64,000 nt of DNA from Patescibacteria group bacterium (GTDB taxonomy: Bacteria; Patescibacteriota; WWE3; UBA101185; UBA10185). The stretch lies in NCBI GenBank assembly GCA_049322215.1, contig JBMORU010000001.1:260023-324022 (forward strand). The letters run 5' to 3'. The notes beneath the pieces were generated by a model. The model was not told the origin of the DNA. It searched no databases and worked only from the letters and a program-made list of their open reading frames with translations. Shown in pieces: positions 1 through 15,757 of the stretch (position 1 is the stretch's first letter; every line of letters starts with the position of its first letter). A program made the translations under genes and the position numbers.

Positions 1-560
1 CCTTCGTAGCTGCCATTGGCGTTTTCGAGTAAGGGCCAGTTTCGATGACTGTGATAAGTATAAATAAACTGCCCCATACATGTTGCTCCAGATTTGTAGT
101 TTTTTATGGTTTCGCACACGCCGTTTTGATACCGCATGGCATTGAAACCACTTTCAACCAAAATCATTGAGCCTATCTTGTTCCAGGGGACATTTTGGTT
201 GTAGGCTTCATCCTTAAAGGCGTTGATCATTTCTAACCTTGAAGGACCACAACCGTCACCGTCAGCTAAAATGTAAGGCACTCCATTGTCAGTGAAAACG
301 TAGTTGTTGAAGTTTTCTTGCCCTACAATTTTAATAACTTCTTCTACCGAAACTGCAACAAATTCGATGTCGTTCACGGTTACCGTAATGGCACCTACTT
401 CTGTGCTTATGGTTGAAAAAGCATTGGCTGCCATTGGTATTGATGTTGGTGGTTGTTTGGTTGGTGTGATTGTTGCCTGTGGTGTTGGTTCTACCTTTGC
501 TGTTGCACTGCAGGCTACAAGCAAAAGCATAATCATTGTTAGCATCAAGCTTTTTTTCAT
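1..560 (-). CDS. Lipoprotein, N-terminal part (gene runs off the window start); signal peptide with LVAC lipobox, Pro/Thr linker, then AFSTI..TVTV.DI module
   Basis: Minus-strand ATG at 558-560 preceded by AAGGAG; translation MKKSLMLTMIMLLLVACSATAKVEPTPQ... is open to the window edge; not in the ORF track because it is truncated. Confidence 0.55.
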   Translation of the reverse strand, partial: MKKSLMLTMIMLLLVACSATAKVEPTPQATITPTKQPPTSIPMAANAFSTISTEVGAITVTVNDIEFVAVSVEEVIKIVGQENFNNYVFTDNGVPYILADGDGCGPSRLEMINAFKDEAYNQNVPWNKIGSMILVESGFNAMRYQNGVCETIKNYKSGATCMGQFIYTYHSHRNWPLLENANGSYE

Positions 561-571
561 GCTTGTCTCCT

Positions 572-1489
572 TTAGTATGTATACATATTAGCTGGGTTCA
601 CATGGTACATGTATCCATTTTCCGTGAGTATTACAACAGAGTTGTGTACATGCGTACCCGATCCATGCTGGTTATTGGTATACCTAGTTACTACTCCACC
701 GCTTGTATATCCTGTGTTTCCTTGGCGTCCAATTTGGGTTCCTGCTGTTATGCGATCTCCCGGTACTGGGTAAGGGTGCCCTGCATCTTCAAACATCATA
801 TGTCCCGAAATTGTCAGAATTATAACCTCTCCGGTACTAGATGCTGTTTGAGCTTCGGGTGGTAAGTTTGAAACAGCAATTTTGCTTGCGCAAACTACTG
901 TTCGTCCTGAAACATCAAATTCCCAGGTTAGTCCACCTTCTGCATTGCCGTCATAGCCTAAGTTGTCGAATGTTCTCCAAACGACGCACTCGGATTGGGC
1001 AATTATGGGAGCACCTTGACCCCCGTTACAGACGATATCGTAGCCTGAATGTCCTCCACTTGGGTTAAACCCTTGTGTAGGATCATAACCTCCTGTACAT
1101 GGTGATGTAATAGAAGTTACGACTGGCAAATCTAAATCTCTGATACTTGCACCAGCAACTACCATTGATCCAATATTAGGTACCGATCCCTCGCCAATTA
1201 CAGCGCCTTGCGGGTTTGTCCAATTATTGATATCTCCCACAAGAACTGTCATGTAAATGGGACTCACCTCAATGATGATGTCCTCACTTACTAACGAGCT
1301 ATCTACACGGCCGGTTTCGGTTCCGATCGTGGAGAAAGCAAGCTCGGCTGTGGGTTTTGGCGTTTCGGTTGGCACAGGAGTTGGTGACGGTACTGCTGTC
1401 GGACTGGTTGGTTGCTCATTAGATGGAATACATCCAACCAGAAGCAACACTACCAGAAGGTATTTGATTACCTTTGTTGTTGCTTTCAT
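572..1489 (-). CDS. M23-family metallopeptidase lipoprotein
   Basis: Signal peptide plus LVGC lipobox; Pro/Thr linker; HxxxD (GGHSGYDI) and HxH (GTHVHNS) M23 motifs; stop lies 12 bp upstream of the next gene start. Confidence 0.8.
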   Translation of the reverse strand: MKATTKVIKYLLVVLLLVGCIPSNEQPTSPTAVPSPTPVPTETPKPTAELAFSTIGTETGRVDSSLVSEDIIIEVSPIYMTVLVGDINNWTNPQGAVIGEGSVPNIGSMVVAGASIRDLDLPVVTSITSPCTGGYDPTQGFNPSGGHSGYDIVCNGGQGAPIIAQSECVVWRTFDNLGYDGNAEGGLTWEFDVSGRTVVCASKIAVSNLPPEAQTASSTGEVIILTISGHMMFEDAGHPYPVPGDRITAGTQIGRQGNTGYTSGGVVTRYTNNQHGSGTHVHNSVVILTENGYMYHVNPANMYTY

Positions 1490-1678
1490 AGAACTACTCT
1501 CCTTATTTGGTTTTCAAACTGCTCGATAATTATTTCTTAACGAAGAATTGAATCTCCCTTCGTTTCTGGGTTTAAATAAAATTCCTGTTTAAACTCAGAA
1601 GTAAGGGGACGAAACAGAATTAGAGTTTTTATTTAAAACTTCCAACTCTGTTTCGTCGTATTCTTTTACCTGTTTCCG

Positions 1679-2998
1679 TTAGTTTTCGAACGGGTCTAGG
1701 TCGAAGAATCCCAAAACTTTACGAGATACATCAGCTATAGTTGTTGCGTTGTCGTTGTTATCAAGGAATAGCTGAGACAAGGGTGGCTTATTAATTTCAT
1801 AGACTAGAAGAAACGTATAGTTTTTCACTTTACCATTACGTGTTTCACGTATTGTGGTGAGCACAAACGGCGTTTCATACGTTTTTCCAAAAGCAGTTAC
1901 GGTTGCAAAGTGTTCTGATACCAGCTCGTAGTTTGCGTTGGTGTGTTCCCCATGTAGCCACGTCCAAATATCTTTTGCCATAATTACATATGAGGCGGGA
2001 GATATTTGGAAGCTCAGTACTTCTTGATCTCCAAGCATTGGGGGTACTACTAAGGAATCGTTGCTTGTTACTTCCTGTGGCGCCGTGTTAGCAAAATCCG
2101 TTCCTGCAATTGATTCAGCTGGTTGCGGATTAAGCTGTGGTTCTGGTAAGGGTTCTGGCTCAGGCTCGGGAGCGTTGTTTTGTTGAGGTTGTTCGCTGGG
2201 CTGATTGTTGTTTTCTGGCGCAGGCTGTTCTTCTGGGCCTAAAACTTGTTCTCGCAGGTTTTCCATTTCTGGGCCAACTGCGTTTACAAGTTGGTTGTAG
2301 AGATCTGTGTTGTCTTTGAGGTTTGGGTCTACAACCACACCATAGAATAAATCCGTAGCGTTTCCCCCTAACGAAGCTGTTGCATGCATTGCATTGATTA
2401 GCCAGGTGAAGTCCATTTCTTGCACGGGTGTTGTTTTGATTGTTACCTCCCACCCATACAAGTAACTGTCTACAGTTTGCTGTGCACTGAAGTTACCTCC
2501 TGCTGCAGCTTGCTGTAGCTTACCTCCATATAAGTAAGTTTCTTCCTGGTTGCCACTTTGCCACGCCACGTTAAAGTTATTTGCCCAGCCTGTTACGGTT
2601 TCTTGTGTTTGTTTGGGGGTAAGCCCATCAAACATAGAAATCATTCGATGCTGTTCAATTACTTCGGTGGCGAGGATTGGGATATCCTGAACGGTTACTG
2701 TGACTCTACCTTGATTACTCGTGGTAGAGAAAGAGTTTGCCGCTGCGGTCATTTCGCTTGCAGGTTGATCCTTGGCATTTGGCAATTCTGCTGCGGGCAC
2801 CATTTCGTTTGTTGTAGTTTCTTCCGGGTTAGCGCTACTGTTAAAAAAGTGGAATGGGTCAGTTACGATCAGAACAATTACCACTACACCAATTAGCACC
2901 CCAGAGGAGATCACTTGCTGTACTTGTTCACGTGTCCGTTGCAGAGTTGTTTTTGTTGTCTGCTGTTGTCTTGCTTGAGTATCTGTTTGCTTACTCAT
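1679..2998 (-). CDS. Membrane-anchored extracytoplasmic protein with Q/R-rich N-terminus, single TM, and PE/PQ-rich linker
   Basis: 439-aa ORF; N-terminal TM (VLIGVVVIVLIV); contains the AANSFSTTSNQGRVTVTVQDI module shared with the two downstream lipoproteins. Confidence 0.6.
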   Translation of the reverse strand: MSKQTDTQARQQQTTKTTLQRTREQVQQVISSGVLIGVVVIVLIVTDPFHFFNSSANPEETTTNEMVPAAELPNAKDQPASEMTAAANSFSTTSNQGRVTVTVQDIPILATEVIEQHRMISMFDGLTPKQTQETVTGWANNFNVAWQSGNQEETYLYGGKLQQAAAGGNFSAQQTVDSYLYGWEVTIKTTPVQEMDFTWLINAMHATASLGGNATDLFYGVVVDPNLKDNTDLYNQLVNAVGPEMENLREQVLGPEEQPAPENNNQPSEQPQQNNAPEPEPEPLPEPQLNPQPAESIAGTDFANTAPQEVTSNDSLVVPPMLGDQEVLSFQISPASYVIMAKDIWTWLHGEHTNANYELVSEHFATVTAFGKTYETPFVLTTIRETRNGKVKNYTFLLVYEINKPPLSQLFLDNNDNATTIADVSRKVLGFFDLDPFEN

Positions 2999-3012
2999 TT
3001 CTACTCCTTTTG

Positions 3013-5364
3013 CTACTTAGGATCGGCTGTTGTGCACGTTGCCAAATCCAAATAGCAGTCAAATGATACGCTAAAGTGCTGCGCTTCTTGGATGTTGGCT
3101 GGTACGCTGTCTGATAAGAACCAACCGTTACCTTCACCTGCATGGTAGTCAATACGATATTTTCCTGAAGAGTCCTTGCAGGCGTACCAGGTACCGTAGT
3201 TTAAGCCGCCGTCTGTTAGGTCTACAATTGCTAGCATATGCCAACCTGTTCTTTTGTAATCATACGAGGCCAAGTTTGTATCGCAGTTTGGGTCGGCGTT
3301 AGCAATTACTTCGGGGTATAGCTGATCTCCCATAACACCATTACTATCTGCATAGATAATTCCACGCGGATTTCTGTTGTTATCAAGATCCAACCAATAG
3401 TAGTTACGGGGGGCTATGTTGGACGGAATTGTTGAAACCAAATACCATCCAATTCCTAGCCTAGAAACCGGAATCCAGCCTTTGCATGTCCATTCTGAGG
3501 CGCCTACGTAAATTCTTACGGGGCCAAACGTAGGCATGCCTTTGTCTAATCCTGTTTCAGCAACAATGATATCCGGCCAGAATCTTTCAAACTCAAGTTG
3601 TGTGGTATTCTGGTCAATCATCCCCATGTATGGAAGCTCAGGGAATGGGATGTTTACACAGGGATCAGGTGTGGGGCTTGGTGTAAACGTTGGTGCTGGT
3701 GTTTCTGTTGGGGCCGGTGTTAACGTAGCTGTTGCAGTAGGTAATACCACTTGTGCAGGATCAAAGTGCTGTGTTTGCGGTTGTGGTGTTGCTGTTTGCT
3801 GAATCTCCACAGTAATCGGTTGTGCTGCAGCTTTTAAGGTGTTTACATAACCGGAAAATCCATTAATACGTACAGGACTTCCTAACGCTGCCAAATTGCC
3901 ATTTACGGCGTTGACCGCGTTGTTGAATCTTCCTTCGTACTTTTGAGCTTCGGTCCAGTTAGGTCCTTCGGGTGTAGCATCTAGGCGCAGGTTTTGATAA
4001 ACACGCACCAGATTAAAATACAGCCCGTCTTTTTCGCCGTCTGTTAGTTCATTACCCTCGATAAGGCGTTTAGCCGTTTCGAGCATTAAATCTGCCTGTG
4101 CCGCTTCGATGATGGGTTGAGTACCTTCCGGCGGGTAAGCCATAGATTGCACTCTGGTAAGGAATCCCTCAGGAACGTAGTTTCCATTGGCGTCCACGTG
4201 TCCCGCTTGTAACCAGTCTAAAGCAATGTTGTACGATTCTTCTACACCTGTGGATTCTTCACTTCCGATCAGTAATGCCGAGAAGTCAACTTTTGCAGCA
4301 CCGGTGCCATTGTTTGCATTGGCGCGCGCTTGGTTGGCTTGGTTACCTAACTCTACTGCCGGCAAAATAAACTGGTTGATCACCTGGTTTATTTCTTCAA
4401 CGCCTTGAGCGGTGATTGCCGGGTTGAATTCAGGTAAAGCTGGTGCATCAACAACGGTGTTATTATATGCATCGACTTGGCCTTGATCAGGATGTGGTGT
4501 CGGTGTGCTGTTGGTATTAAGATCTACCATAGCTGCCTGAGTGTTTCCACCTTTAGCGACTAAGGTTTCAAGCAAACCACCGAAGTTACCGTTTTTAAGT
4601 CCGGAAATTAAGATCATGGAAGCTACAGCTGTGACGATAATCAGCGGATAAGCAACTTTACGGATGATGGCCGGTTTTCCCTCGCTTTGAACGTGGACGT
4701 AACCTGCAATCACAATCGCGATCAAAATTGGTAACCACTGCGTAAGTTGCGTTGCCAGGGCTGCTACGACGAAAAAACAAACCAGGCCAAGCGCTATGTA
4801 ATTACCATGTTGTTTAAACAAGGCAACCCATTTTTGCACTTGATAGGCTTCCTCTGAAACGGCTTTTGGTGCTTGAATGCTAGGTACTTTAGAAAAGAAT
4901 CCTGCGGCACCGCTTTCACCATCCTGCTTTTGTGCTTTTTCCGTAGGTTTTGCTTTGGTTTTAGGCTGAGCATGGCTACCCGAAAGCGTGAATACCGTTG
5001 TTGGTTTCCACATCTTTTTGGTATAAACCATATAGCCAGAGACTGCCGTAGTTGTGATCCAGGAAAACACCCCTTTCCACCACATGAAATTATGCATTTC
5101 TTGGGTGTACCAGTATGGGCCTGTGTTCATAACCCAGACATAAAACGCTCCAAATAGAAGCGTGACTAATAAAGTGATCAAAAAAACTTTGTTTTTCTTT
5201 GACTCTGTACTTGTTTTTTTGACCCAGCCTTTCTCCACAAGAATGCTTAATGCAAGTGGAGAAAGCTCTTTAAGACTTTTTTGCTGGTCAGAATGTTCCA
5301 TTTTAGACCATTCTTGCAACAACTTTCTGTCTTTTGAACTCAACGTTTTAGTTGCACTAGTCAT
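3013..5364 (-). CDS. Polytopic membrane protein, paralog A (cytoplasmic N-terminus, TM bundle, Pro/Thr linker, unique C-terminal extracytoplasmic domain)
   Basis: 783-aa ORF; AAGGAG RBS; shares a 100% identical ~130-aa core and ~55-60% flanking identity with ORF 5553..7796. Confidence 0.7.
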   Translation of the reverse strand: MTSATKTLSSKDRKLLQEWSKMEHSDQQKSLKELSPLALSILVEKGWVKKTSTESKKNKVFLITLLVTLLFGAFYVWVMNTGPYWYTQEMHNFMWWKGVFSWITTTAVSGYMVYTKKMWKPTTVFTLSGSHAQPKTKAKPTEKAQKQDGESGAAGFFSKVPSIQAPKAVSEEAYQVQKWVALFKQHGNYIALGLVCFFVVAALATQLTQWLPILIAIVIAGYVHVQSEGKPAIIRKVAYPLIIVTAVASMILISGLKNGNFGGLLETLVAKGGNTQAAMVDLNTNSTPTPHPDQGQVDAYNNTVVDAPALPEFNPAITAQGVEEINQVINQFILPAVELGNQANQARANANNGTGAAKVDFSALLIGSEESTGVEESYNIALDWLQAGHVDANGNYVPEGFLTRVQSMAYPPEGTQPIIEAAQADLMLETAKRLIEGNELTDGEKDGLYFNLVRVYQNLRLDATPEGPNWTEAQKYEGRFNNAVNAVNGNLAALGSPVRINGFSGYVNTLKAAAQPITVEIQQTATPQPQTQHFDPAQVVLPTATATLTPAPTETPAPTFTPSPTPDPCVNIPFPELPYMGMIDQNTTQLEFERFWPDIIVAETGLDKGMPTFGPVRIYVGASEWTCKGWIPVSRLGIGWYLVSTIPSNIAPRNYYWLDLDNNRNPRGIIYADSNGVMGDQLYPEVIANADPNCDTNLASYDYKRTGWHMLAIVDLTDGGLNYGTWYACKDSSGKYRIDYHAGEGNGWFLSDSVPANIQEAQHFSVSFDCYLDLATCTTADPK
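4580..4968. repeat. Near-identical ~390-bp direct repeat, copy A (inside paralog A)
   Basis: DNA is essentially identical to 7010..7398; encodes KTKAKPTEKAQ...NGNFGGL in both proteins. Confidence 0.8.
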
Positions 5365-5427
5365 TTACATCTCCTTATAGATTTCACTAGTTTGGGATTC
5401 TTCATTTGTCAAAAATGCTATTATTAC

Positions 5428-5476
5428 TCTCAATTTAAGTCAGCAAACTTTGTTAAGCTTGTTGGCTTAAGGGAGA
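5428..5476 (-). promoter_or_regulatory. Conserved leader element with TTAAGC-N6-GCTTAA palindrome upstream of paralog A; candidate TTGACA -35 lies between it and the RBS
   Basis: About 50 bp are ~90% identical to 7861..7910 at the same distance from the start codon; preceded by a long imperfect hairpin at 5477..5524. Confidence 0.5.
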
Positions 5477-5552
5477 GCCTGAACTTTATGCATGTATTTA
5501 TTTTTAAATGCATAAAGCTCAGGTCATAGTTACAACTGGTTATTTGTTATGT

Positions 5553-7796
5553 CTAGGGTGCGTTCACTGGCTGGAAGGTAAAGGCGTCATACTCAATGCC
5601 ATCTTTCCAGTAGGTGAAGGTTTCCTCTGCATTGGGCTTCAATACAAATTGACCTACCCCAGGAGCAGCGTCGACAGCCATAACACCATCCCAACCCGGA
5701 TACGAAACCCAATAGTGTCCGCAGTAAGTACTGGTATACGTTACCGTAATCACTACATCACTTGTATACTCATGAGCTCGTATCAGTGCGAATCCAAATC
5801 CAGGCCAGGCTTCTATTTGATGTCCAAGCACTACAGTAGTTGTGTCTCCAACTGCGATGTGTCCGGGTTCAGGTCCATTTGGGCCTTGAACAATAAGAAC
5901 GCTACCTACACCATTTACATTACTTCTCACGTTGTAATGCGGGGGCTGAGGGGGCTCTAGCAGATCACACCAGATTACTTCGTTTCCACTTGGATTTGGA
6001 GCTGCCACTGTGGGATTCACAGGGAATACTTGCTGCGGCTCTAAAGTTGGCACAAGTGTAGGCCATGGCGTCATTGTAGGAGCTGTCGTTGGAACCACCA
6101 CGGGCACATCTGTTGGCCAAGGCGTGTTGCTAGGTACTGGCGTTTGCGTCGCCGTAGGCTGTACCACGTTTTCTGGGTTGAACTGCTGCGTAGGCATTGG
6201 TGTTGCCGTTTGCTGCACTTCCACAGTAAGTGGTTGTGCTGCCGACTCCAGTTTACCTGCAAAGTTATCCAGCAAGGGTAGTCGTGCTTGGGAGCCAAGT
6301 CCGGCGAGTTCACTGTTAACAATGTTTGCTGCAGCGTTGTACCTATTCTCATATAGCTTTGCCGCTTCCCAATCTTGGTGGTTTAATTCCAGAGACTGAA
6401 GCATCAACACCAAGTTCAGGTAAGCACCATTCAACTCGTAGGAGCTTGATGCGTAGTGAGTCCCTTGCAAAAGGCGCGCTGCTTCTTGCGAAAGCGTTGT
6501 ACCTTCAATAGGTTCTCCAATGATTAGCCGTTTTGCTAAGTTCTCTAAGCGGGCTTTATCTTCTACGCTGATGATCGGTACTGAGCCGTCAGTTGGTTCT
6601 GCCATACTTGCGAGGCGCTCAATGTACCCACGTGATACATAAGTGTTGTCTGCATTCACGTGTCCTGACATCAACCAGTCTGCAGCAACGTTGAAGCTTT
6701 CTAATACACCTGTGCTTCCCGCTTCACCGTTGAGTAACGGTCCAAAGTCGATTTGTGCTGCTCCAGTGCCGTTGTTAGCACTTGACCGGTAGGTATCCGC
6801 TTCCAAGGCTAAGGTAACGGCAGGGATAACGAACTGATTCGCTACCTGACCAATTTCCTCGGCTCCCTGGGAGGTGATTGCCGGATTGAACTCTGGCAGC
6901 ACGGGCGCATCAACTACTCCTTGGTTGTAGGCATCAATAGCACTGGTGTCTACGCTTGCTTCTACCACTTCTGTTTCTGTAACGTTGTTGGCGCTAAAGT
7001 TGAATAAGCCACCGAAGTTACCGTTTTTAAGTCCGGAAATTAAGATCATGGAAGCTACAGCTGTGACGATAATCAGCGGATAAGCAACTTTACGGATGAT
7101 GGCCGGTTTTCCCTCGCTTTGAACGTGGACGTAACCTGCAATCACAATCGCGATCAAAATTGGTAACCACTGCGTAAGTTGCGTTGCCAGGGCTGCTACG
7201 ACGAAAAAACAAACCAGGCCAAGCGCTATGTAATTACCATGTTGTTTAAACAAGGCAACCCATTTTTGCACTTGATAGGCTTCCTCTGAAACGGCTTTTG
7301 GTGCTTGAATGCTAGGTACTTTAGAAAAGAATCCGGCAGCACCGCTTTCACCATCCTGCTTTTGTGCTTTTTCCGTGGGTTTTGCTTTGGTTTTATGTCG
7401 TATTTGCTCTTCTGGAAGTGCATAGGTTGCTTCAGGCTTCCACATTTGTCGTTTGATAGCTAAGGTGCTAGAACAGGACAGCATAACCAGCCAGGTCAAA
7501 ATACCTTTCCACCAAACGAATCCGTGCATTTCCTGTGTATACCAGGATGGGCCGGTTGTCATAACCCAGGCATAAAACATTCCTAGCAGAAGTGTTCCAG
7601 CCAAAAAAGCAAGCGTTACCCTTTGTAGCAACGACCATTCTTTGGTGACGGAAAGTTCTTTCTTTTCCACCAGCAAATCAAGCGCTGCCTGCGAAAGGTC
7701 TCGCTCTGTCAGTTGTAACTTTTCAACGTTCGTTAAGCCTCGCCAACCCCGAAGGTGTTTGCGATCGGCTTCACTTAAGGTTGTTTTCTTACTCAT
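5553..7796 (-). CDS. Polytopic membrane protein, paralog B (same architecture as A, different C-terminal domain)
   Basis: 747-aa ORF; identical core block; divergent C-terminus (..HYWVSYPGWDG..). Confidence 0.7.
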   Translation of the reverse strand: MSKKTTLSEADRKHLRGWRGLTNVEKLQLTERDLSQAALDLLVEKKELSVTKEWSLLQRVTLAFLAGTLLLGMFYAWVMTTGPSWYTQEMHGFVWWKGILTWLVMLSCSSTLAIKRQMWKPEATYALPEEQIRHKTKAKPTEKAQKQDGESGAAGFFSKVPSIQAPKAVSEEAYQVQKWVALFKQHGNYIALGLVCFFVVAALATQLTQWLPILIAIVIAGYVHVQSEGKPAIIRKVAYPLIIVTAVASMILISGLKNGNFGGLFNFSANNVTETEVVEASVDTSAIDAYNQGVVDAPVLPEFNPAITSQGAEEIGQVANQFVIPAVTLALEADTYRSSANNGTGAAQIDFGPLLNGEAGSTGVLESFNVAADWLMSGHVNADNTYVSRGYIERLASMAEPTDGSVPIISVEDKARLENLAKRLIIGEPIEGTTLSQEAARLLQGTHYASSSYELNGAYLNLVLMLQSLELNHQDWEAAKLYENRYNAAANIVNSELAGLGSQARLPLLDNFAGKLESAAQPLTVEVQQTATPMPTQQFNPENVVQPTATQTPVPSNTPWPTDVPVVVPTTAPTMTPWPTLVPTLEPQQVFPVNPTVAAPNPSGNEVIWCDLLEPPQPPHYNVRSNVNGVGSVLIVQGPNGPEPGHIAVGDTTTVVLGHQIEAWPGFGFALIRAHEYTSDVVITVTYTSTYCGHYWVSYPGWDGVMAVDAAPGVGQFVLKPNAEETFTYWKDGIEYDAFTFQPVNAP
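7010..7398. repeat. Near-identical ~390-bp direct repeat, copy B (inside paralog B)
   Basis: Matches 4580..4968 with only a few edge mismatches. Confidence 0.8.
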
Positions 7797-7860
7797 AAGT
7801 TGTTTTACTCCTTATTTTGGTATGTTTACTTATTATGAGTCGTTTAATTCATTTAGTTCT

Positions 7861-7910
7861 CTCAGTTTAAGTCAGCAAACTTTATTTAAGCTTGTTGGCT
7901 TAAGGGAGAG
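7861..7910 (-). promoter_or_regulatory. Conserved leader element with TTAAGC-N6-GCTTAA palindrome upstream of paralog B
   Basis: Homologous to 5428..5476; flanked by the hairpin TCCGAATTG...CAATTCGGA at 7911..7960. Confidence 0.5.
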
Positions 7911-7983
7911 TCCGAATTGCAACAGTATGTTTTTTGAAAAAACTTACTGCCACAATTCGGATGTCATTATTTAGGTTACTTTG

Positions 7984-8487
7984 TTAGCCACTGAGACGCA
8001 CATATGTGAACAAACCAAAAACTACGATCACAATTTGCGTAACGTAGAAGACGGTCGCCCATAAAGGTTGTAAACGTCCTTCTTCTGTTCTCATAAATGC
8101 TTTGGAACCAAACAGGACGATCATTAGGAGAACGGCTGTGCTTCCCCAATACAGTGGTTCAAAGGCCAGTGAATTGAATAGCCATGTTCCCGGTTTTGGT
8201 TGAGGAATGATCCATGTCCATATGCCTAGCCAAATGTAGGTAGTGCCTTCTTTGGTTATTGCATAGTGTCCCAGACGCACCACGATCATAGCAAGCCAAT
8301 AGACGGTGAATAAAAGTTCTGGGAACTTGTAAAACACCGGATAGGTGATTCGATCATATGTGTCTTGTTTCAGTACTTTTAGCACGTTTGTTTGGCGTCG
8401 TTGCTGTGGCTGGTTTCGATTACGTTGTTGTGTATTATTCGTCATTTTCTTCACCTCCGTCGTCAGGGAATGCACCGACTTCTTCAA
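7984..8487 (-). CDS. Membrane protein with Q/R/N-rich cytoplasmic N-terminus
   Basis: 167-aa ORF; 3-4 predicted TM segments; codon usage matches the island. Confidence 0.5.
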   Translation of the reverse strand: MKKSVHSLTTEVKKMTNNTQQRNRNQPQQRRQTNVLKVLKQDTYDRITYPVFYKFPELLFTVYWLAMIVVRLGHYAITKEGTTYIWLGIWTWIIPQPKPGTWLFNSLAFEPLYWGSTAVLLMIVLFGSKAFMRTEEGRLQPLWATVFYVTQIVIVVFGLFTYVRLSG

Positions 8488-9523
8488 CTTCTATGTGTCT
8501 AGCTTTGTCGGCAGTATCTCCTTCTGTTGCTTGATTCAATCCCAGCATGTTTCCAATAGGTGTGTTGATAAGGAACTTTGCTGCCAGCGCGGTTATAAGG
8601 CCACCATTCTCTACCATCCATACTGCTGCTGCTGTTTCCGGTGAAAATCCTGCACCTTTCGCAATTTCTCCGATGGCTTCACCTTTCTCACGCATAGCAT
8701 GTTTAGCAGGCGTTCCAGTGTCTTTGTCGTCTACACGCTGGATGGTAAATATGAAGCTTTTTGGATCAATGCCTGTTTCCGTAATGACCTTTCTATTTAA
8801 ACCATATCGGAATGGTGACTGTGCCTTCTTACGAAGTTGTTGTTCTCCGGTTTCAAGGCTTTCCTCACCAAGTACTATGGCAATAAAGTCATCGATAAAG
8901 GGTCCTATGAAGGAAATAAACCCTTTGTCATTGCCAATTTGCTCATATTTATCCTTATCGTCTGGATTTGTGCTTAGGGTCCAACCAATACGCCAAGTCA
9001 CCTTGTCGTATTCAACACGGGATTTAGTCTTAGGTTCAACAGTTGTTCCCGAATACGAGCGTATGGCCTCCCGACTGATAAAGAATCCACGCAGAAAATA
9101 ACCGGGTACTAAGCTCAGAAAAACAACAATAACTAGGAACAACCAGGGAAGACCATCAAATATCCCAGGGGAATTTGCGGCTTCTGTTTGTGTTTCTTCT
9201 GCTGTTTCTTGCGCTATGGGTAATGCATCTGTGCGTACGTAGCGTACGGGAGCGTTTCCACTGCCATCATCGCTAGGACGCCCACGAAGCTCAACGCGTT
9301 GTACGCCTTGCACTTCGTTCCATGCATTGTCCGCCCATGGGTTATCGTTTTCTTTCACCACATCCGTTGGTTGGGCCTGGTTAAAGGCACTATTTGGATC
9401 GTGGTACAGATTTGTTCCTGTAGGTATCTCTTGGCCACCACCGCATGCTACAAGCAATGCGATTAGTAAGGCCAAGAGAATACCCTTGAATATTTTGTTT
9501 GCCAAAGGCATTCTCTTGTTCAT
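8435..9523 (-). CDS. Lipoprotein with an internal TM segment; unknown function
   Basis: Signal peptide plus LVACGGG lipobox; 362 aa. Confidence 0.55.
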   Translation of the reverse strand: MNKRMPLANKIFKGILLALLIALLVACGGGQEIPTGTNLYHDPNSAFNQAQPTDVVKENDNPWADNAWNEVQGVQRVELRGRPSDDGSGNAPVRYVRTDALPIAQETAEETQTEAANSPGIFDGLPWLFLVIVVFLSLVPGYFLRGFFISREAIRSYSGTTVEPKTKSRVEYDKVTWRIGWTLSTNPDDKDKYEQIGNDKGFISFIGPFIDDFIAIVLGEESLETGEQQLRKKAQSPFRYGLNRKVITETGIDPKSFIFTIQRVDDKDTGTPAKHAMREKGEAIGEIAKGAGFSPETAAAVWMVENGGLITALAAKFLINTPIGNMLGLNQATEGDTADKARHIEVEEVGAFPDDGGEENDE

Positions 9524-9538
9524 TGTCTTACTCCTTAT

Positions 9539-10330
9539 TTATTCTTCGTCGTTTTCGCGCATGGCATAGGCTACAATTACCGCTACAAACAACACGCCAA
9601 TCCCCAGGATGTAGGTGTTGATCGTAGACAGTGACGTTGCCAAATCAGCCAAAACACGGCCAACAGCTACGCTGTAAACGAATTGTGGTATAGCCATACC
9701 CGCTTTCATCAAAATGGCCATGAGCGGGGCTGCTAGTACCAAAATGCCCAGGGCAAGCAGACTGATGTCTTTTGCCACTTCCAGGGCTGTTCGTACTTTT
9801 TCTTCAATCTTCGGTGAAAGCATTTTTCCAAAAACTACTACGCCTGCAATCACCAGAAGAGGCAGACCTTGCGCAATAAAGTTAGCGGTGCCGATACTAC
9901 GAGCATAAAACACTGACACCACTACCAGTAATCCGGCAAGCCACAACCACAGGTATTTAAACTGAAAAGCATCTCCTGACCGACCCAGCGCAGAACTGAA
10001 AAGACCTGCAATGAAGGCTCGGTTAAAGTATGCAACGATTAGTGCTAACAGCACAAAGAACCACAGTGAAGTGATCCCGTCTGCAGCGCCTGATACCTGG
10101 TTGATGCCGTTGACCGCGTCTGTAGTAAGGTCGCTAAGGCCGTCAATGGTTGTCAGTTTTTGGCCAATTTCGGTCTCGCGAATGGCTGTTCCACCGCGTG
10201 CGATGGTTAAGAGCCATGAGGGTGCTCCCCAACGTTCTAGTGCGGGGGAAGCCACTGACAAAATCACCAGTACAACAAATGCCCCAAACAGTAGTTTGAG
10301 CACAGTCTTGAGTGAAAAAATCTTTGACAT
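9539..10330 (-). CDS. Polytopic membrane protein; unknown function
   Basis: 263-aa ORF with many hydrophobic helices; first gene of the minus-strand island run. Confidence 0.55.
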   Translation of the reverse strand: MSKIFSLKTVLKLLFGAFVVLVILSVASPALERWGAPSWLLTIARGGTAIRETEIGQKLTTIDGLSDLTTDAVNGINQVSGAADGITSLWFFVLLALIVAYFNRAFIAGLFSSALGRSGDAFQFKYLWLWLAGLLVVVSVFYARSIGTANFIAQGLPLLVIAGVVVFGKMLSPKIEEKVRTALEVAKDISLLALGILVLAAPLMAILMKAGMAIPQFVYSVAVGRVLADLATSLSTINTYILGIGVLFVAVIVAYAMRENDEE

Positions 10331-10646
10331 TTACTTACTCCTTATTATTTTGAGTTTTATTTCGTGACTAACAAATTGTCAACTTGCAATAAGTTGCAAA
10401 AAAAGCAACACGTATTCCGTCTTGCTCACACAACTTATTTCAATTATCAGTTTAGAGCCAAACCACAAGGGTTTTTTGTGGATCCAAACTTCTTTTATTA
10501 TACACTATAGGCTACACTTTTGTCCATCCTTATAGTGTTTTTTCATTTTAACACTATTCGTAAGTAAAATGAAATTTAAAAAGTCTCTATATCCTATAAC
10601 AACAGCAATTTATCACTATTGGTTATTTTCCCTTTAAATCTTAGGG

Positions 10647-10683
10647 TAAAAAAAAAGCCCTCAAAGGGCTTTCTCATTTTTTA
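10647..10683 (-). terminator. Rho-independent (bidirectional) terminator downstream of rplY
   Basis: GCCC-TCAAA-GGGC hairpin flanked by an A9 run on one side and a T-run on the other. Confidence 0.7.
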
Positions 10684-10687
10684 AAAG

Positions 10688-11362
10688 TTATGCTTCTTTA
10701 TCTTTGTTTTTATTATCTGCGCCTTCTTCTTCATCCTCTTCTTCTGTTGCTTCTACACTTGCTATTAATTCTTCTTCACTTACTTCATCTCCAGCCTCTT
10801 CTTGCATTTCTGCATAAGCTATTTTTACTACTAAATCATCATCTTCATTATCAACAATTGTTATTTTACTCTTATCGTAATTTAATTCTCCTACGGTAAT
10901 AAATGCATCTACTTCTGTTAAGCCAGATACGTCTACTTCAAAAGCTGAAGGTAAGTCTGCAGGTAAAGCTTCTACTGCAACAGTGTTTAAAAGTGTAAGT
11001 AACATACCCTCACCTGTTTTAATAATTGGCGATTTTTCTTCACCAATTACTTCTACGGGTATATCAGCAGTAATTTTTTCTGTTAAGTCCACTTTATGAA
11101 AATTTACGTGAATTATTTTTCCTGATACAGGATGATATTGAACCTCTGATATTAGTACTTTTTGATTATCGTTTTCCCATTTTAAGTCTATAAGTGAGGT
11201 TTCGCCTGCTTTTTTAAATACTCTTACAAAATCAACGTAATCAATTGATATTGGCATTGAATCCATGCTTTTTCCAAATACCACAGCTGGCACTATTCTT
11301 TCGCGCCTTAGTTGTTTTGTTTTTTTACCTAATTTTTCTCTTTTTTGTACAGCAATTTGCAT
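10688..11362 (-). CDS. rplY: 50S ribosomal protein L25/general stress protein Ctc, with acidic C-terminal tail
   Basis: N-terminus ..KKTKQLRRERIVPAVVFGK.. matches the L25 signature; 224 aa. Confidence 0.85.
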   Translation of the reverse strand: MQIAVQKREKLGKKTKQLRRERIVPAVVFGKSMDSMPISIDYVDFVRVFKKAGETSLIDLKWENDNQKVLISEVQYHPVSGKIIHVNFHKVDLTEKITADIPVEVIGEEKSPIIKTGEGMLLTLLNTVAVEALPADLPSAFEVDVSGLTEVDAFITVGELNYDKSKITIVDNEDDDLVVKIAYAEMQEEAGDEVSEEELIASVEATEEEDEEEGADNKNKDKEA

Positions 11363-11661
11363 ATAGATTTCTTTTTAAGCTTTTGGTGTATATCCAAAAG
11401 TTCGTTATAACTAATACTTTTAATGCCTAAAAACTTTTTTACTTCTTCCCCGGTTAAGTCCGATATTATGGGCATAGCACCGCTTCCCGAAAGGGTTATG
11501 GTTACCATGCTTTCTGCCTGGCATTTTGGGCAAATAACATGTGCTATTAATGCAACATGTACATGACTTATTGGAACAAGTTCTCCACCTTCTAAGCTGT
11601 TCCCACATCTGTAGCAAGTTGTTTTAGCTAACTGTTCATTTATGATTCGTTTTTCTATCAT
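11329..11661 (-). CDS. Small zinc-ribbon-like protein (CxxC...CxxC)
   Basis: 110-aa ORF with CYRCG and CPKC pairs; its 3' end overlaps the rplY start by 34 bp. Confidence 0.4.
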   Translation of the reverse strand: MIEKRIINEQLAKTTCYRCGNSLEGGELVPISHVHVALIAHVICPKCQAESMVTITLSGSGAMPIISDLTGEEVKKFLGIKSISYNELLDIHQKLKKKSICKLLYKKEKN

Positions 11662-11732
11662 AATTTCGCCCAGTGGGACGGTCTAGATTCTACTTTAGAC
11701 CGTAGTTAAAGTCAACTAAGGCAGATAATACA

Positions 11733-14700
11733 TTATTTTAATTTAATTGCAAATTCTTGATCTGTGTTTAGTGTTCCTTTATATTCAACCCTTCCTTCGT
11801 ATGTTTCTGCAGGAGGTTGTGTAAAATCTATATTTAACCCAAAGGGAGAGTTAAATAGTACATTGTAGCTGTAGTCTTGCGTTCCCGGTTGTTTTTGCCA
11901 GTATAGTTTGTAGTCTTTAAACTCTTTTGATAAAGATAAAGATTCTGGCAAATCATATTTAAGAACTAAAGTTACTTTTTCTTGCGGATTTACTGTGAAG
12001 TTGGTTCCAAATGAAGTATATTCACCTGCTTGTTCTATAGTTATTTCCTCAATTAGATCTTTCTCAAAGTTATCGTTTCTTTTTAATTCAGCACCTGTTA
12101 ATTTTGTACCCTTTTGAGTTAATACTCTTACATAATCTGTGTAAGGTCCTCCAGGCCAAGCACTTGAATCTCCAGTGTGTATATAATCAAGATATAATTC
12201 TGCTCTTAATACGCCATCTCGTGTTTCTGACAAAATGTTGTAGTACATTTCATTTTTAACATAATAGTTTGCTTTAGTTCCACCTAAATTGGCGTTTACT
12301 ACATATAAATAGTCGCCTGTAGTTTTTGCTAACTCTCCTGTCCAACCATTTTCCTGTAGTTTTGCGTTAAAAGATGTATTTGGTAAGTACACCATGAAGT
12401 GCTTTTCTTCCATTGCGGTTGTTAATGTTGTAACAAGCTGGGGTAATTTTTCGCTTTCCAGGGCAATCATTTTTTCTAAAAGTTTACTTCCTAATATTGT
12501 TAAAAACGATTTCTTTTGTGTGGATCCCTCCTCATAGTTGAATTCGCTATGATATTGGGTTACTTCATACATATTTTCAGCGTTAACCTCCTGATTGTAT
12601 GCGGTTAAAAATACGGGTCCTGTGACGCTTAATAACTCTTGTGCAAAATATAAATCTATTGCTAATACGCCATCAAATTGGCTTTCATCTACTTTGAAAA
12701 ATAGATCCTCTATAGTTTTTGCAGATTCAGGGAAACTTGGATTCCAGTTAGCATTTCTTATGTGAAGATTTTCCTCTTTTAATAAGTCTACTATTGGTTT
12801 AGGTGCTGGAACTTCTATACTTCTGATGTCTATTTGTCCATCTGGATTATATATGTCGTCTATTGCTAGTTTTGCTATTTTCCCTTTTTCTAGTTCTAAT
12901 ACTGCATAAGACCCTATAAACCCTCCGGTAGGTCTTAGCTCATTACTATTTTGTAATAAAATTAGGTACCTTTTTTTGCTTTCGGCTCCAAGTATTTGGG
13001 GTAAATCTGATGTTAACGTTGCAGCAATGTCTAAACCTTTTTCCATTTTGGCAATAGCCGCATCATAAGATATAACTTCGTCTTTTATGTTTGAGGGTAA
13101 ATTATTAAGATTAGTTTGTTTTAAGTCGCCAATTGCAAACTGCAAACTTTCACGTGCACTTGATAATTGCAATTTGGCTTCAGCTAATTGCTGAGCATCA
13201 AATTCTGTCTCAGTGTTGCTTTCTATTGCGCCCCATACTTTAAAAAATGGGTTTGAAGCTTTAGCTGTACTATGTATAGCTCTTGAAAAATGTTTTCCTG
13301 AATCAATTACTTTTTGAGTTGCTTCGTACTGTTCTCTTTTTCCTACAATAGTGAACACCCAACGTAGTTTAGACAGGGCACCTTGAGTTTTTGATAATTC
13401 CTCATAGGCTATATTAGCTGAATTTACAGCTTCTTCTGAATTTAAATTACTTAAGCTTTTTACATAGTTAACTAGCTCAGTTCTAGCATTTTGTGCATGA
13501 GTATAGGTTTGCACTGAGGGTACTGCAATACTAACAATTAAAAACGCTATAAATATTCCCAAAATCATTAAAAACACGTTTTTATTTAAACTTTTTATAG
13601 AGAGTTTAGATAATTTGGTTGAAACTTTTGTATTGTTTTGCTGTACCTCGGCATTAAAAGGAAGTAGCCCTGGTGTATTTTCAGTTGTTTCCTGTGCTGT
13701 TGGGGGAGGTGCTACGCTAAAAATATCTTGCTCATTCTTTGTGGTTTCTTCTGATAAAGATGATAAAGTTTCAGTTGTTTCGCTTTTTACATCTGCCAAG
13801 CTAAATTGAGTTTCCTGTTCTCTTTTTTTCAACTCTACTTTTGGTGTTTCCGATTGAATTTGAGAACTTTTATCTCTGGAAAACTTTTCTTTTATTTTTG
13901 TGAAGGCACCTTTGTTATCATTTATTGATTTTGTTACGGCGATGTTTTCTTGAGCTATAGAAAGTACTTGCTGTGGTTCGTGCTGCGTATTTTTTCTTTC
14001 TACTATTTTAGATAGTTTAAAACTATTTGTGTTTATTTCATAACCAAACCACTTAAGTGTTTTTATTATTCCTTCTTTATAAGAAATTTTTGGATACCAG
14101 CCCAGGTGTTGCAATCCTTCGCGCTCACTTACATTTGAATCTTTGGGTTTTATAGGATCTTCCTTATCTTCAAAACTAACTTTTAGTTCTCTGTCGGCTA
14201 GTCCTTTTAACAAGTATGCTGTTTCAATAACTGTATGGGGTTCTTTATCTACCAGTGAGTATATTTTTCCTTTTGTATCATCATTAAAAAGTGCTTTAGC
14301 TATACCGGCAACTGCATCAGTTATGTACAAGTAATACTCTCTATCATTGCCTTCTCCATAAACAGTTAGGTCTTGATTTTCTAGCAAAGCTTTCATTAAA
14401 CGACCTAAATCTCCTGTGGAATTTAAATTCATGCGTGGTCCAAACACCTCTGGAAGTCTTACTATGCGTACATCTGTTTGGTACTTTTTGTAATATTCCC
14501 AAACTAAGGCTTCTGCAAATCTTTTAGCTTCGGTTAAAGAGTACTTTTTTTCTTCCTTTGGCGTCTTTCCAAAATAATTGTCTAAATCAATTGATGACAT
14601 TAATCCTTGGTACACATTTGTAGATGATCCAAGCAAAAATTTTGCATCTGAGGTTCTTGCTAGGTCTAACAATGCCTTTGTACCCACAGCATTAGTTAGT

Positions 14701-15044
14701 AAAGATTCTAAATCGGCATTGTCTGTGTTAGATAAATAAGTTTCTATACCTGCCAAGTGAACAATGTAATCTACACTTTGAATTCTTTCAGGCAAACCTT
14801 GATTTATATCTACATCGAAAACAGCAAATTTTGGGTTTTTTAAGAGGGAACTTATATAAACGTCTTTTCCGGTTGTGAAGTTGTCTAAAACAACTACCCG
14901 AGCATCTTTAAGTAGCAAAAATTCTGCTAAATGAGAGCCTAAAAAGCCTGCTCCTCCAGCTATAAGGGCAGTGGGTGCGTTAGGTGTCTTTTTGATCACA
15001 TTTTCTTTAGGCATAGGCAGCTTTTTTGTTGTGCTTGTACGCAC
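11733..15044 (-). CDS. Fusion protein: NAD-dependent epimerase/dehydratase (extended SDR) - TM segment - large extracytoplasmic DUF4012-like domain
   Basis: GGAGFLGSHL Rossmann motif at the N-terminus; central TM (FLMILGIFIAFLIVSIAV); C-terminal region contains KRYLILLQNSNELRPTGGFIGSY, recalled as the DUF4012 signature. Confidence 0.75.
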   Translation of the reverse strand: MRTSTTKKLPMPKENVIKKTPNAPTALIAGGAGFLGSHLAEFLLLKDARVVVLDNFTTGKDVYISSLLKNPKFAVFDVDINQGLPERIQSVDYIVHLAGIETYLSNTDNADLESLLTNAVGTKALLDLARTSDAKFLLGSSTNVYQGLMSSIDLDNYFGKTPKEEKKYSLTEAKRFAEALVWEYYKKYQTDVRIVRLPEVFGPRMNLNSTGDLGRLMKALLENQDLTVYGEGNDREYYLYITDAVAGIAKALFNDDTKGKIYSLVDKEPHTVIETAYLLKGLADRELKVSFEDKEDPIKPKDSNVSEREGLQHLGWYPKISYKEGIIKTLKWFGYEINTNSFKLSKIVERKNTQHEPQQVLSIAQENIAVTKSINDNKGAFTKIKEKFSRDKSSQIQSETPKVELKKREQETQFSLADVKSETTETLSSLSEETTKNEQDIFSVAPPPTAQETTENTPGLLPFNAEVQQNNTKVSTKLSKLSIKSLNKNVFLMILGIFIAFLIVSIAVPSVQTYTHAQNARTELVNYVKSLSNLNSEEAVNSANIAYEELSKTQGALSKLRWVFTIVGKREQYEATQKVIDSGKHFSRAIHSTAKASNPFFKVWGAIESNTETEFDAQQLAEAKLQLSSARESLQFAIGDLKQTNLNNLPSNIKDEVISYDAAIAKMEKGLDIAATLTSDLPQILGAESKKRYLILLQNSNELRPTGGFIGSYAVLELEKGKIAKLAIDDIYNPDGQIDIRSIEVPAPKPIVDLLKEENLHIRNANWNPSFPESAKTIEDLFFKVDESQFDGVLAIDLYFAQELLSVTGPVFLTAYNQEVNAENMYEVTQYHSEFNYEEGSTQKKSFLTILGSKLLEKMIALESEKLPQLVTTLTTAMEEKHFMVYLPNTSFNAKLQENGWTGELAKTTGDYLYVVNANLGGTKANYYVKNEMYYNILSETRDGVLRAELYLDYIHTGDSSAWPGGPYTDYVRVLTQKGTKLTGAELKRNDNFEKDLIEEITIEQAGEYTSFGTNFTVNPQEKVTLVLKYDLPESLSLSKEFKDYKLYWQKQPGTQDYSYNVLFNSPFGLNIDFTQPPAETYEGRVEYKGTLNTDQEFAIKLK

Positions 15045-15748: not shown

Positions 15749-15757
15749 AGGAAGTTT

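Follow-up and report, generated by a model that had tools for sequence, protein, structure and literature searches.

A GC-rich island between leuS and rplY of a Microgenomates-type bacterium is one copy of a conserved, recurrently inserted cassette of envelope genes

How does a tiny AT-rich bacterial genome come to hold a block of envelope genes that differs from its surroundings in almost every compositional measure, and what might such a block be for? This question is raised by the left end of a stretch of 64,000 nucleotides from contig JBMORU010000001.1 (assembly GCA_049322215.1, positions 260,023 to 324,022 of the forward strand; hereafter "the window"), a contig of 1,112,869 bp that is part of a metagenome-assembled genome (MAG) labelled "Patescibacteria group bacterium" (locus tags ACOZAO_01380-01410). 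Positions 1-10330 of the window and around 370 bp to their left form an island of about 10.7 kb that is inserted where the convergent genes leuS and rplY of a Microgenomates-type member of the Candidate Phyla Radiation (CPR) would otherwise be separated by a very short spacer. It represents a single copy of a cassette that is conserved and collinear across genomes and comprises seven protein families, here called A to G, of which D is duplicated in this copy. We hold these conclusions on insertion and cassette with strong confidence, and with moderate confidence we regard an inserted A-G operon, combined with a model in which its products form an envelope complex, as the best explanation overall.

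The compositional contrast is pronounced at every level of analysis. Window positions 1-10330 have a G+C content (GC) of 45.3% compared to 34.2% in the other 53.7 kb; all ten 1-kb bins in 1-10000 lie between 41.5 and 50.9% and those past 11 kb between 30 and 40%, and the step at the right edge takes GC from 0.525 (10101-10300) down to 0.32 (10301-10500). The original prediction, made by eye, had put this difference at ~50% versus ~33%, which captured the sharp step and overstated its size. All individual island genes have a GC of 0.44-0.49, whereas almost all host genes range from 0.29 to 0.39, and their GC at third codon positions (GC3) is 0.35-0.48 compared to around 0.25 in the host. At four-fold degenerate sites, island genes average 0.376 (0.30-0.48) and host genes 0.217 +/- 0.041 (n = 45; Mann-Whitney p = 1e-9), with each island gene exceeding the host maximum of 0.294. 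Since synonymous sites are shifted, the abundance of Pro, Thr, Ala, and Gly in the encoded proteins is no explanation for the GC effect. Codon choice differs just as clearly between island and host (ATC 0.35 versus 0.04, TTC 0.46 versus 0.11, CTG 0.20 versus 0.04, ATA 0.17 versus 0.48), and in 5-kb windows the tetranucleotide composition of the island lies 20 to 22 standard deviations beyond that of host windows. Even after normalization for GC, the island correlates with the host at only 0.65-0.69, compared to 0.84 +/- 0.03 for host windows. Sliding GC, tetranucleotides, and codon usage, the comparisons suggested along with the original prediction, therefore all set the island apart, and its base composition and codon usage are unlike those of its host, as is expected of a genomic island.

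An abrupt GC step at both ends of a region in metagenome data could also mean that DNA of a higher-GC organism was joined to a CPR contig during assembly. The left boundary lies outside the window as had been surmised, some 370-440 bp beyond its edge at the stop codon of the convergent leuS gene, and is crossed by Logan contig L001 (SRR32167788), which shares 4606 nt with the window at 100% identity and places the island end ~370 bp left of it. On this contig the last gene of the operon, P1, is followed on its 3' side by a hairpin with a T8 run and then by the leuS stop codon, with GC falling from 0.46 to 0.32 there. The right junction is crossed at 100% identity by a second Logan contig, L002, which runs from rplY into the island genes P8, P7, and P6. 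Both contigs end within an exact repeat inside the island, as de Bruijn contigs should. Furthermore, a 2.7-kb contig from a second run (L170; ERR15087771) is 97.9% identical to window positions 7366-10081. With both junctions crossed by contigs that are independent of the MAG and a copy of the island in a second run, a chimeric join is very unlikely, and homologous cassettes at the same site in related genomes make the chance of an assembly artefact negligible. In the window genome, the stop codons of leuS and rplY are 11.1 kb apart.

In relatives, leuS and rplY lie next to each other in convergent orientation. We surveyed 97 CPR loci with at least 1.5 kb of sequence downstream of leuS, measuring gaps by tblastn ends, and found rplY downstream of leuS on the opposite strand in 89 of them. 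The gap is below 600 bp in 49 of these 89 loci, 0.6-2 kb in 30, and above 2 kb in 10, and where spacers were read directly, the two stop codons are often separated by tens of bp. The genome represented by L056, which is the sister of the window's genome in a tree of leucyl-tRNA synthetase (LeuRS; 72% identity), has no insert at leuS/rplY and is syntenic with the window genome on both sides (on the left an SBP-family gene and leuS; on the right rplY, a gene for a 110-amino-acid (aa) protein, one for a 1103-aa DUF4012/epimerase protein, RNase H, and the next genes). The 49 loci with adjacent genes and the syntenic L056 show the empty site among relatives that is expected for a genomic island. 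No sequence in 185,579 species genomes or in JGI metagenomes exceeds 73% identity to the flanking LeuRS, whose nearest relatives come from Woesebacteria, WWE3, and Levybacteria-type CPR.

In the LeuRS tree, the cassette occurs at leuS/rplY in three separated lineages and in both orientations, with empty relatives interleaved: in the window genome (minus strand), in the sisters L018 and L169 (plus strand), and in L023 (minus strand), which belongs to an otherwise empty WWE3 clade. Given this distribution, at least three independent insertions are more economical than many clean deletions. The cassette is also found at loci unrelated to leuS/rplY in L163, L165, and L167. Conversely, leuS and rplY flank different cargos in different genomes, that is, the A-G cassette (window, L169, L018, L023), another island (L028, L011), small genes (~30 loci), or none (49 loci). 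Alternative cargos between the same core genes are characteristic of replacement-type flexible islands, and the presence of other cargo at leuS/rplY indicates that this site behaves as an insertion hotspot.

The other cargos of this site deserve a brief description. The WWE3-type genomes L028 (12235-19422; L160 is a duplicate of this locus) and L011 (12238-15900) carry a different single-strand island of membrane proteins, GC-raised in L028, from which a 530-aa protein of L028 and a 197-aa protein of L011 belong to one common family (E = 9e-36); it is not the A-G cassette. At the ~30 loci with gaps of 0.6-2 kb, including L003, L004, and L053, one or two small genes encode bitopic or secreted proteins, and those of L003, L004, and L053 share a conserved family of ~198 aa (E ~1e-46 to 1e-55). 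In L091 (12319-17575), GC rises from 0.447 to ~0.54 directly downstream of leuS and the contig ends before rplY; its cargo, comprising a 501-aa protein (GC 0.59) and a 456-aa lipoprotein with 6 transmembrane (TM) helices, is unlike the cassette. L024 had been a candidate for a long island, which we rejected when its gap turned out to hold housekeeping genes (DnaK, GrpE, LepA, GroEL).

That the island is a defined cassette was recognized through P4 and P5, its two family D proteins. When 1.84 billion representative proteins were scanned in full by HMMER with a P4/P5 profile, 11 matches at E <= 1e-3 were returned, including, besides P4 and P5 themselves, four convincing ones (P0003, P0004, P0005, and P0007) of 744 to 889 aa that share the P4/P5 architecture and are each encoded at the same position in the same single-strand operon. 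The weaker matches P0006 and P0009 are encoded outside such cassettes and were set aside. The series of gene products is closely similar between copies, with 263-425-152-750-427-294 (M23)-259 aa in L163, 269-387-145-744-408-313-294-304 aa in L167, 279-328-135-889-178-411-351-287-293 aa in L165, and 288-354-150-800-419-431 aa in L169, compared to 263-362-167-747 (+783)-439-305-308 aa in the window. L018 and L023, first seen as large leuS/rplY gaps, have the same gene order and topology, so that the cassette is present in at least seven genomes. Across them, sizes are typical of each family (A ~265-290, C ~150, D ~750-890, and E ~410-440 aa), and the genes for the M23 peptidase and the SLT-type enzyme are fused in L018 and L169.

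Homology was examined in a non-circular manner by building profiles exclusively from members outside the window and searching a pool of 125 proteins. At every position of the cassette, the window protein is the best match that is not itself a member of the profile, with E-values of 1.8e-18 for family B (P7), 3.6e-7 for C (P6), 2.2e-28 and 1.9e-23 for the two D proteins P4 and P5, 6.4e-16 for E (P3), 2e-38 for F (P2), and 2.4e-16 for G (P1). An independent 8 x 14 matrix of hhalign comparisons contains only four pairs at P < 1e-3, and all four are positional counterparts. Word-indexed searches of 5.8 billion proteins with P5, with an alignment of four D sequences, and with an alignment of family B retrieved essentially nothing beyond the proteins of the query itself; since the D search missed sequences of its own query, these negatives are soft, and it is the HMMER scan described above that was informative. 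Apart from the enzymes assigned as families F and G, the A-G cassette is uncharacterized and has no annotation in the libraries searched.

The island encodes eight proteins, one fewer than had been counted originally, all on the minus strand as predicted, and the envelope features read from the sequence at that time are all there (LVAC lipoboxes in P1 and P7, LVGC in P2, Pro/Thr linkers, and polytopic proteins). The operon begins with P8 (family A; 9539-10330, minus strand), a polytopic membrane protein of 263 aa with 6-7 TM helices, whose counterparts at the same position have 263 (L163), 269 (L167), 279 (L165), and 288 aa (L169). P7 (family B; 8435-9523, minus strand) is a 362-aa lipoprotein with an extracytoplasmic portion of ~100 aa, a single TM helix, a conserved domain of ~220 aa, and an acidic tail; an SPFH/Band-7 domain considered for this family was dropped as it found no support from Pfam or PDB. 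P6 (family C; 7984-8487, minus strand) counts 167 aa from a TTG start (153 aa in the Logan call) and has a basic N-terminus followed by 2-3 TM helices. The family D proteins P5 (copy 1; 5553-7796, minus strand; 747 aa) and P4 (copy 2; 3013-5364, minus strand; 783 aa) are tandem paralogues with 53% overall identity. Both have a short N-terminal helical segment (cytoplasmic in P4), about five TM helices arranged as 2 + 3, a helical ectodomain, a Pro/Thr stalk of ~100 residues, and a Cys-containing C-terminal domain that is beta-rich and variable across the family; the C-terminus of P4 resembles that of P0007. An AlphaFold2 model of P5 is helical in the ectodomain (residues ~307-520; pLDDT confidence score 65-88) and below a pLDDT of 50 elsewhere, and the modelled ectodomain has no match at E < 0.3 in a Foldseek search of PDB.

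The three remaining genes encode anchored extracytoplasmic proteins. P3 (family E; 1679-2998, minus strand; 439 aa) is bitopic, with an N-terminal TM helix and a large ectodomain including a Pro/Glu/Gln-rich stretch, and no Pfam family recurs among nine members of its family. P2 (family F; 572-1489, minus strand) is a lipoprotein of 305 aa that has a Pro/Thr linker and, in its divergent M23 (LytM-type) peptidase domain, the zinc-binding motifs HSGYD (HxxxD) and THVH (HxH). The M23 peptidase of the original prediction is weak for P2 viewed in isolation (PF01551 at E = 0.013 and 16.1 bits, with a gathering cut-off of 28.7) and holds via its family, given the strong match of the family F profile to P2 and the M23 matches of its homologues (a recorded PF01551 match for the L163 protein, and 2.5e-8 with a GSTGNSTGPHxH motif for the fused proteins of L018 and L169). 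P1 (family G; 1-560 of the window, minus strand) loses its last 122 codons to the left edge and was completed from L001 (-366 to 560); the complete lipoprotein counts 308 aa and includes, besides a Pro/Thr linker, an SLT-like lytic transglycosylase domain. Residues E136, S137, Q164, Y228, and K229 are invariant in seven family G sequences within SES, GQIY, and YKG motifs, in agreement with the catalytic Glu in an E-S motif and the downstream G-x-Q and Y-x-G type motifs of SLT enzymes. Pfam SLT (PF01464) is matched by three of the seven members (best E = 0.0043) and SLT_4 by one (0.045), with none for P1, and a PDB search with the family G profile gave as its best, non-significant alignment a phage tape-measure SLT domain (E = 0.58). 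Judging from these motifs and profiles, we assign family F as predicted membrane-anchored M23 endopeptidases and family G as predicted membrane-anchored SLT-like lytic transglycosylases.

Within each cassette, the anchored E, F, and G proteins share a short cassette-specific module after anchor and linker, which reads "FST..TE.G..TVTV.DI" in the window (more generally "FST..(E/Q)xG..TVTV.DI" in P3, P1, and P2), "LGIVDPG.M.V" in L023, and "ALP.F..D.S..P.A" in L018, suggesting that the three proteins might dock to a common partner. The eight proteins have no significant match in Pfam, PHROGs, NCBIfam, or PADLOC (for PADLOC none at E <= 0.1), so that no model of anti-phage defence fits any of them, and sequence searches of PDB with P1, P2, and the profiles of families G, D, and B returned no significant match either.

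The island appears to have its own signals, a promoter-like site 5' of P8 and a predicted terminator 3' of P1. The AT-rich spacer that had been noted before rplY at the right boundary comprises 357 bp (10331-10687; GC 0.28-0.32) between P8 and rplY and likely contains the cassette promoter and the rplY terminator. It includes a TGGACA-18-TATAAT sequence upstream of P8 (10497-10526, minus strand) that is a consensus match only, at 11 of 12 positions, and is suggestive rather than proven because the promoter scan found fewer sites overall than in shuffled sequence. A G+C-rich hairpin with A and T runs on both sides (10654-10672) lies beside the stop codon of rplY and resembles an intrinsic terminator working in both directions, which would be ancestral and shared. 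The right-flank host gene rplY (10688-11362, minus strand; ribosomal protein L25/TL5) matches Pfam Ribosomal_L25p and TL5_C and has a GC of 0.326 and a GC3 of 0.15.

A tract of ~390 nt with an exact core of 326 nt, encoding a cytoplasmic loop and TM3-5, is nearly identical between P4 (4577-4965) and P5 (7009-7397) in surroundings that otherwise share 35-65% DNA identity. At the protein level, the paralogues are identical over residues 135-264 (100%) and much less so in the N-terminal part (41%), the ectodomain (48%), the linker (43%), and the C-terminal domain (28%). This pattern indicates that D was duplicated in tandem long ago, that gene conversion has recently homogenized the membrane core, and that the predicted exposed head has diverged. 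The spacers upstream of P4 (5414-5483) and P5 (7846-7916) are 83-94% identical over ~70 nt, and this relatedness suggests that the duplication included the upstream region, possibly with an internal promoter or translation signals. Paralogue expansion is also seen elsewhere, with family E duplicated in L165 and L167. Compared with the strain variant L170, the ratio of nonsynonymous to synonymous polymorphism (pN/pS) is 0.13 for P7 and 0.21 for the available part of P8, with P6 identical, indicating purifying selection on these genes. Identity between the window and L170 varies along the cassette (93.6% in the P8 part, 98.8% in P7, 100% in P6, and 99.8% in the N-terminal part of P5), and this mosaic divergence suggests recombination within the cassette between strains.

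How did the cassette arrive? Horizontal acquisition of an envelope module, as originally proposed, is borne out by its foreign composition, the empty site in relatives, and the same GC-rich cassette elsewhere. Cassette GC is above that of the flanks in every genome examined, with 0.45/0.34 (cassette/flank) in the window, ~0.50/0.37 in L165, 0.50/0.42 in L023, ~0.42/0.34 in L163, ~0.50/0.43 in L169, and 0.405/0.346 in L018, and ~0.55 for the cassette of L167. The edges are very sharp in L165, where four-fold GC3 is 0.43-0.55 in the cassette versus 0.21-0.37 outside. The shift at synonymous sites is graded (+0.16 in the window, +0.09 in L023, and ~+0.02 in L018), which fits arrivals of different ages followed by amelioration. 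The classical mobility signatures of genomic islands are missing: there is no integrase, transposase, or relaxase in the island (by Pfam) or in the cassettes of L163, L165, L167, and L169, no tRNA within 13 kb (the only one in the window lies at 23410-23484), and no boundary direct repeats, att sites, or target-site duplications above shuffled expectation in five genomes. Searches of phage, IMG/VR viral, and plasmid records for families B, D, and G found no match. A cassette devoid of its own recombinase would probably enter by DNA uptake and subsequent recombination in or near the conserved flanks.

Phylogeny places the carriers L018, L023, and L169 within CPR, while the flanks of L163, L165, and L167 are AT-rich and CPR-like, with one flank protein matching a CPR locus at 49% identity. 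The codon usage of the island is closer to that of the L165 cassette (r = 0.67) than to that of its own host (r = 0.52), and the flanks of L163 and L165 agree with this CPR host at r = 0.88-0.90. These relationships are compatible with a shared pool of 50-55% GC that feeds CPR-like recipients, and another CPR lineage or an unsampled element of 50-55% GC is at least as likely a source as a non-CPR host. Genomic islands are common in Patescibacteria, and most detectable transfers take place within the phylum (PMC12455944). As a separate observation, the L167 cassette lies inside a block of at least 17 kb (4400-21110; GC 0.47-0.60) beside a RelA/SpoT gene (GC 0.40), and this block, with its ~20 open reading frames of 57-100 aa, one of which encodes a cold-shock-domain protein, may be a larger cassette vehicle; its small open reading frames had no match when tested against PHROGs.

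What might the products do? Five membrane proteins and two anchored hydrolases of complementary specificity, encoded as one operon, suggest an envelope complex that opens the cell wall locally. We propose that they would assemble as a complex anchored in the cytoplasmic membrane and cut peptidoglycan locally, with G acting on glycan strands and F on peptide cross-links. Family D would display a variable head, its fastest-diverging and duplicated part, on a wall-spanning Pro/Thr stalk. Such a surface adhesion and wall-remodelling device could act on the cell's own wall or on that of a partner, in an epibiotic CPR cell plausibly at the contact with its host, a role that we infer from the types of proteins involved. 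We put this model of attachment and local cell-wall remodelling forward as a tentative one, possible enough to be taken seriously.

Several points weigh against our interpretation of the island as an inserted A-G cassette with such a function. The uniformly higher GC of cassettes could reflect an intrinsic bias instead of recent arrival, and in L018 and L011 synonymous sites show little or no shift. The mode of insertion outlined above is conjectural, and the function is deduced rather than observed. Among the profiles built from other members, that of family A matches P8 weakly (E = 1.1e-3). Family D is at most 25% identical to any homologue and reaches 24% with the nearest one, and with no closer cassette among those sampled, neither a donor nor a transfer event can be named. 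For families A to E, searches of Pfam, NCBIfam, PHROGs, PADLOC, and PDB, the last by sequence and by fold, yielded no relative. Finally, three Logan contigs break off inside the gene-conversion tract (L001 at 4606, L002 at ~7347, L170 at 7366), so that the P5-P4 tandem, that is, segment 4966-7008, is found in the MAG contig only.

One alternative is that the cassette is an ancient, vertically inherited, fast-evolving surface locus that was often lost and owes its GC to a local bias instead of foreign origin, for example GC-biased gene conversion in a recombination hotspot. Its presence at the same site in several lineages, the same orientation in the sisters L018 and L169, a cassette GC that loosely tracks host GC with a positive offset, the gene conversion active within the island, the mosaic strain divergence, and the small or absent shift in two genomes would all suit this view. 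However, the cassette sits at unrelated loci in L163, L165, and L167 and in both orientations at leuS/rplY, and many clean deletions would be needed to explain stop codons tens of bp apart in L056 and most of the tree. A shift that varies from +0.16 to ~0 fits different arrival times better than a constant bias, and the tetranucleotide signature is foreign even when normalized for GC, so that we consider vertical inheritance improbable. We also see little probability in a non-CPR donor of higher GC such as the epibiont's bacterial host, a source suggested in the original prediction. The island does exceed its genome in GC, the most GC-rich copy (L167) lies in the GC-rich block described above, phylogenetic placement in CPR covers L018, L023, and L169 and not L163, L165, or L167, and some donors of genes to Patescibacteria are reported from outside the phylum (PMC12455944). 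Yet among 1.84 billion representatives or 5.8 billion clusters, island proteins have recognizable relatives only within the cassette family, the carriers that can be placed are CPR, the flanks of L163 and L165 share the codon usage of this CPR host, and most transfers stay within Patescibacteria (PMC12455944). A remnant of a prophage or other mobile element, be it a lysis or tail-lysin module or a fragment of an integrative and conjugative element, is very improbable. Phage tail-associated lysins typically pair SLT with M23, the best though non-significant PDB alignment of family G falls on a tape-measure SLT domain, weak PHROG matches point to spanin and endolysin families (E 8e-4 to 0.04), and the L167 cassette is found among many tiny open reading frames. 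The spanin matches, however, span only signal peptide and lipobox, these small reading frames have no PHROG match, and 50,697 phage records, IMG/VR contigs, and PLSDB plasmids contain no match. No virion, packaging, or integration genes such as capsid, terminase, portal, or integrase were found, no relaxase, and no phage similarity of the kind that marks a prophage, and the genes are under purifying selection in the chromosome. The cassette has in common with phage lysins its pair of predicted activities and, weakly, an alignment across the SLT catalytic motif, but its enzymes are individual lipoproteins whose genes share a chromosomal operon with those of membrane proteins.

A different alternative concerns what the cassette is rather than where it came from, namely that it supplies, in diverged form, the membrane proteins and hydrolases of the Patescibacteria type IV secretion system (T4SS). 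In Microgenomatia-type genomes these would be encoded away from virB4 and work with the chromosomal VirB4 ATPase, and C would correspond to VirB3, D to VirB6, E to VirB8, and F together with G to VirB1. All T4SS have a VirB4-family ATPase as their hallmark, and in Microgenomatia VirB6 is scarce, VirB8 almost undetectable, and VirB1 and VirB3 mostly encoded away from virB4, with M23 domains in some VirB1 homologues (PMC12102498). The cassette would suit this picture, being present in CPR genomes of the kind in which detection of VirB6, VirB8, and VirB1 is reported to be difficult. It also resembles the monoderm MPF-FATA and Patescibacteria systems (PMC12102498) in its set of parts (a small protein with 2-3 TM helices, a large polytopic one with an extracellular domain, a bitopic one, and SLT and M23 hydrolases), and the SLT-M23 fusions of L018 and L169 are reminiscent of two-domain monoderm VirB1 proteins. 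A VirB1-like peptidoglycan hydrolase is indeed present with the SLT-like G and the M23-type F, though this feature is not specific to T4SS. On the other hand, neither a VirB4 nor any other ATPase is encoded among the eight island proteins, in the cassettes of L163, L165, L167, and L169, or among the large proteins in the rest of the 64-kb window, and a coupling ATPase is lacking as well. At the level of Pfam homology, which is what these searches cover, members of D, C, E, and A show no TrbL/VirB6/PrgH, VirB3/PrgI, or VirB8/PrgL at E-values up to 10, including no VirB3 or PrgI in seven family C members, and the D ectodomain model has no PDB match. A patchy, insertable island also fits poorly with a component reported to be essential and nearly universal. 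In the absence of VirB4 the cassette cannot be filed as a T4SS, and we consider this identity unlikely.

We return to the inserted, uncharacterized envelope cassette and its closest analogues. Examples of replacement-type flexible islands, which lie between conserved core genes, are the pneumococcal cps locus (between dexB and aliA), the O-antigen cluster that E. coli carries between galF and gnd, and what Rodriguez-Valera and colleagues called "metagenomic islands". As an island, the cassette appears by analogy closest to such replacement-type flexible surface islands and not to classical integrative islands. Like the cps and O-antigen loci, it is a cluster for a putative surface structure with atypical composition between housekeeping genes, with lineage-specific cargo at one site and without integrase, tRNA, or direct repeats. 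Unlike in these loci, its GC is raised and not lowered, it encodes membrane proteins and peptidoglycan hydrolases instead of glycosyltransferases, and it is also found at unrelated loci. With regard to the products, FtsEX-EnvC/PcsB and SpoIID/SpoIIP/SpoIIM combine membrane scaffolds, a helical extracellular element, and a hydrolase of the M23 or lytic transglycosylase type. The cassette similarly has a membrane-embedded scaffold, a helical extracellular element, and hydrolases, but it lacks an FtsE-like ATPase and detectable homology to these systems, its five membrane proteins have no known fold, and it is accessory rather than core. In L171 (978-4720), the 290-aa protein P0009, the weak match to the D ectodomain mentioned above (E = 6.8e-4), is encoded right after FtsE, FtsX, and a 393-aa M23-like protein, a neighbourhood that may reflect an analogy to hydrolase control of the FtsEX/EnvC type or merely coiled-coil similarity.

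Some additional features of the window genome fall outside the island. Three small genes on the minus strand (18464-18883, 41812-42354, and 47221-47517) have a GC of 0.41-0.43, above that of their neighbours; two of them encode predicted membrane proteins, and they may be other small foreign insertions. Two orphan genes (41415-41624, minus strand, 70 aa; 48411-48743, plus strand, 110 aa) reach a GC of 0.45-0.46 in this genome of 34% GC and share an identical leader of 26 nt, ATCACAAATAAGGAGATAATCATGTC, that includes ribosome-binding site and start codon. This leader forms an inverted repeat (41619-41644 and 48390-48415), and the two genes, inverted relative to each other, are 6.7 kb apart. Near the island on its left side, the window genome encodes ProRS, DinB_2/DUF1706, and DUF5343 proteins between a DUF1232 gene and TsaD (L001, 7298-10811), and the absence of these genes from the syntenic stretch of L169 (3376-4696) indicates a second rearrangement there.

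CPR or Patescibacteria account for a sizeable part of bacterial diversity and seem to live attached to other cells, and we know of almost nothing on the envelope proteins behind this attached lifestyle outside Saccharibacteria. Genomic islands of orphan envelope genes are common, and what is new here is that the island is not a one-off orphan patch but a member of a conserved, recurrently inserted cassette of seven families. In a bolder and, to our mind, doubtful extension, A-G might be an undescribed, exchangeable CPR envelope machine, either the missing and extremely diverged half of the Microgenomatia T4SS that would resemble VirB1/3/6/8, or a device for attachment and wall breaching that works without an ATPase at the contact of epibiont and host, with the D head setting host specificity and being swapped by recombination at the leuS/rplY hotspot. 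Even if the cassette were merely another island of orphan genes, it would still be a well-bounded example of horizontal gene transfer in a CPR genome. Its recurrence at one site without a recognizable mobility gene makes it well suited to studying the entry of gene cassettes into very small genomes, and it is a candidate for the T4SS parts reported as undetectable in Microgenomatia. Most directly, its seven-family operon offers a set of candidate genes for the surface and host interface of Microgenomates-type CPR.

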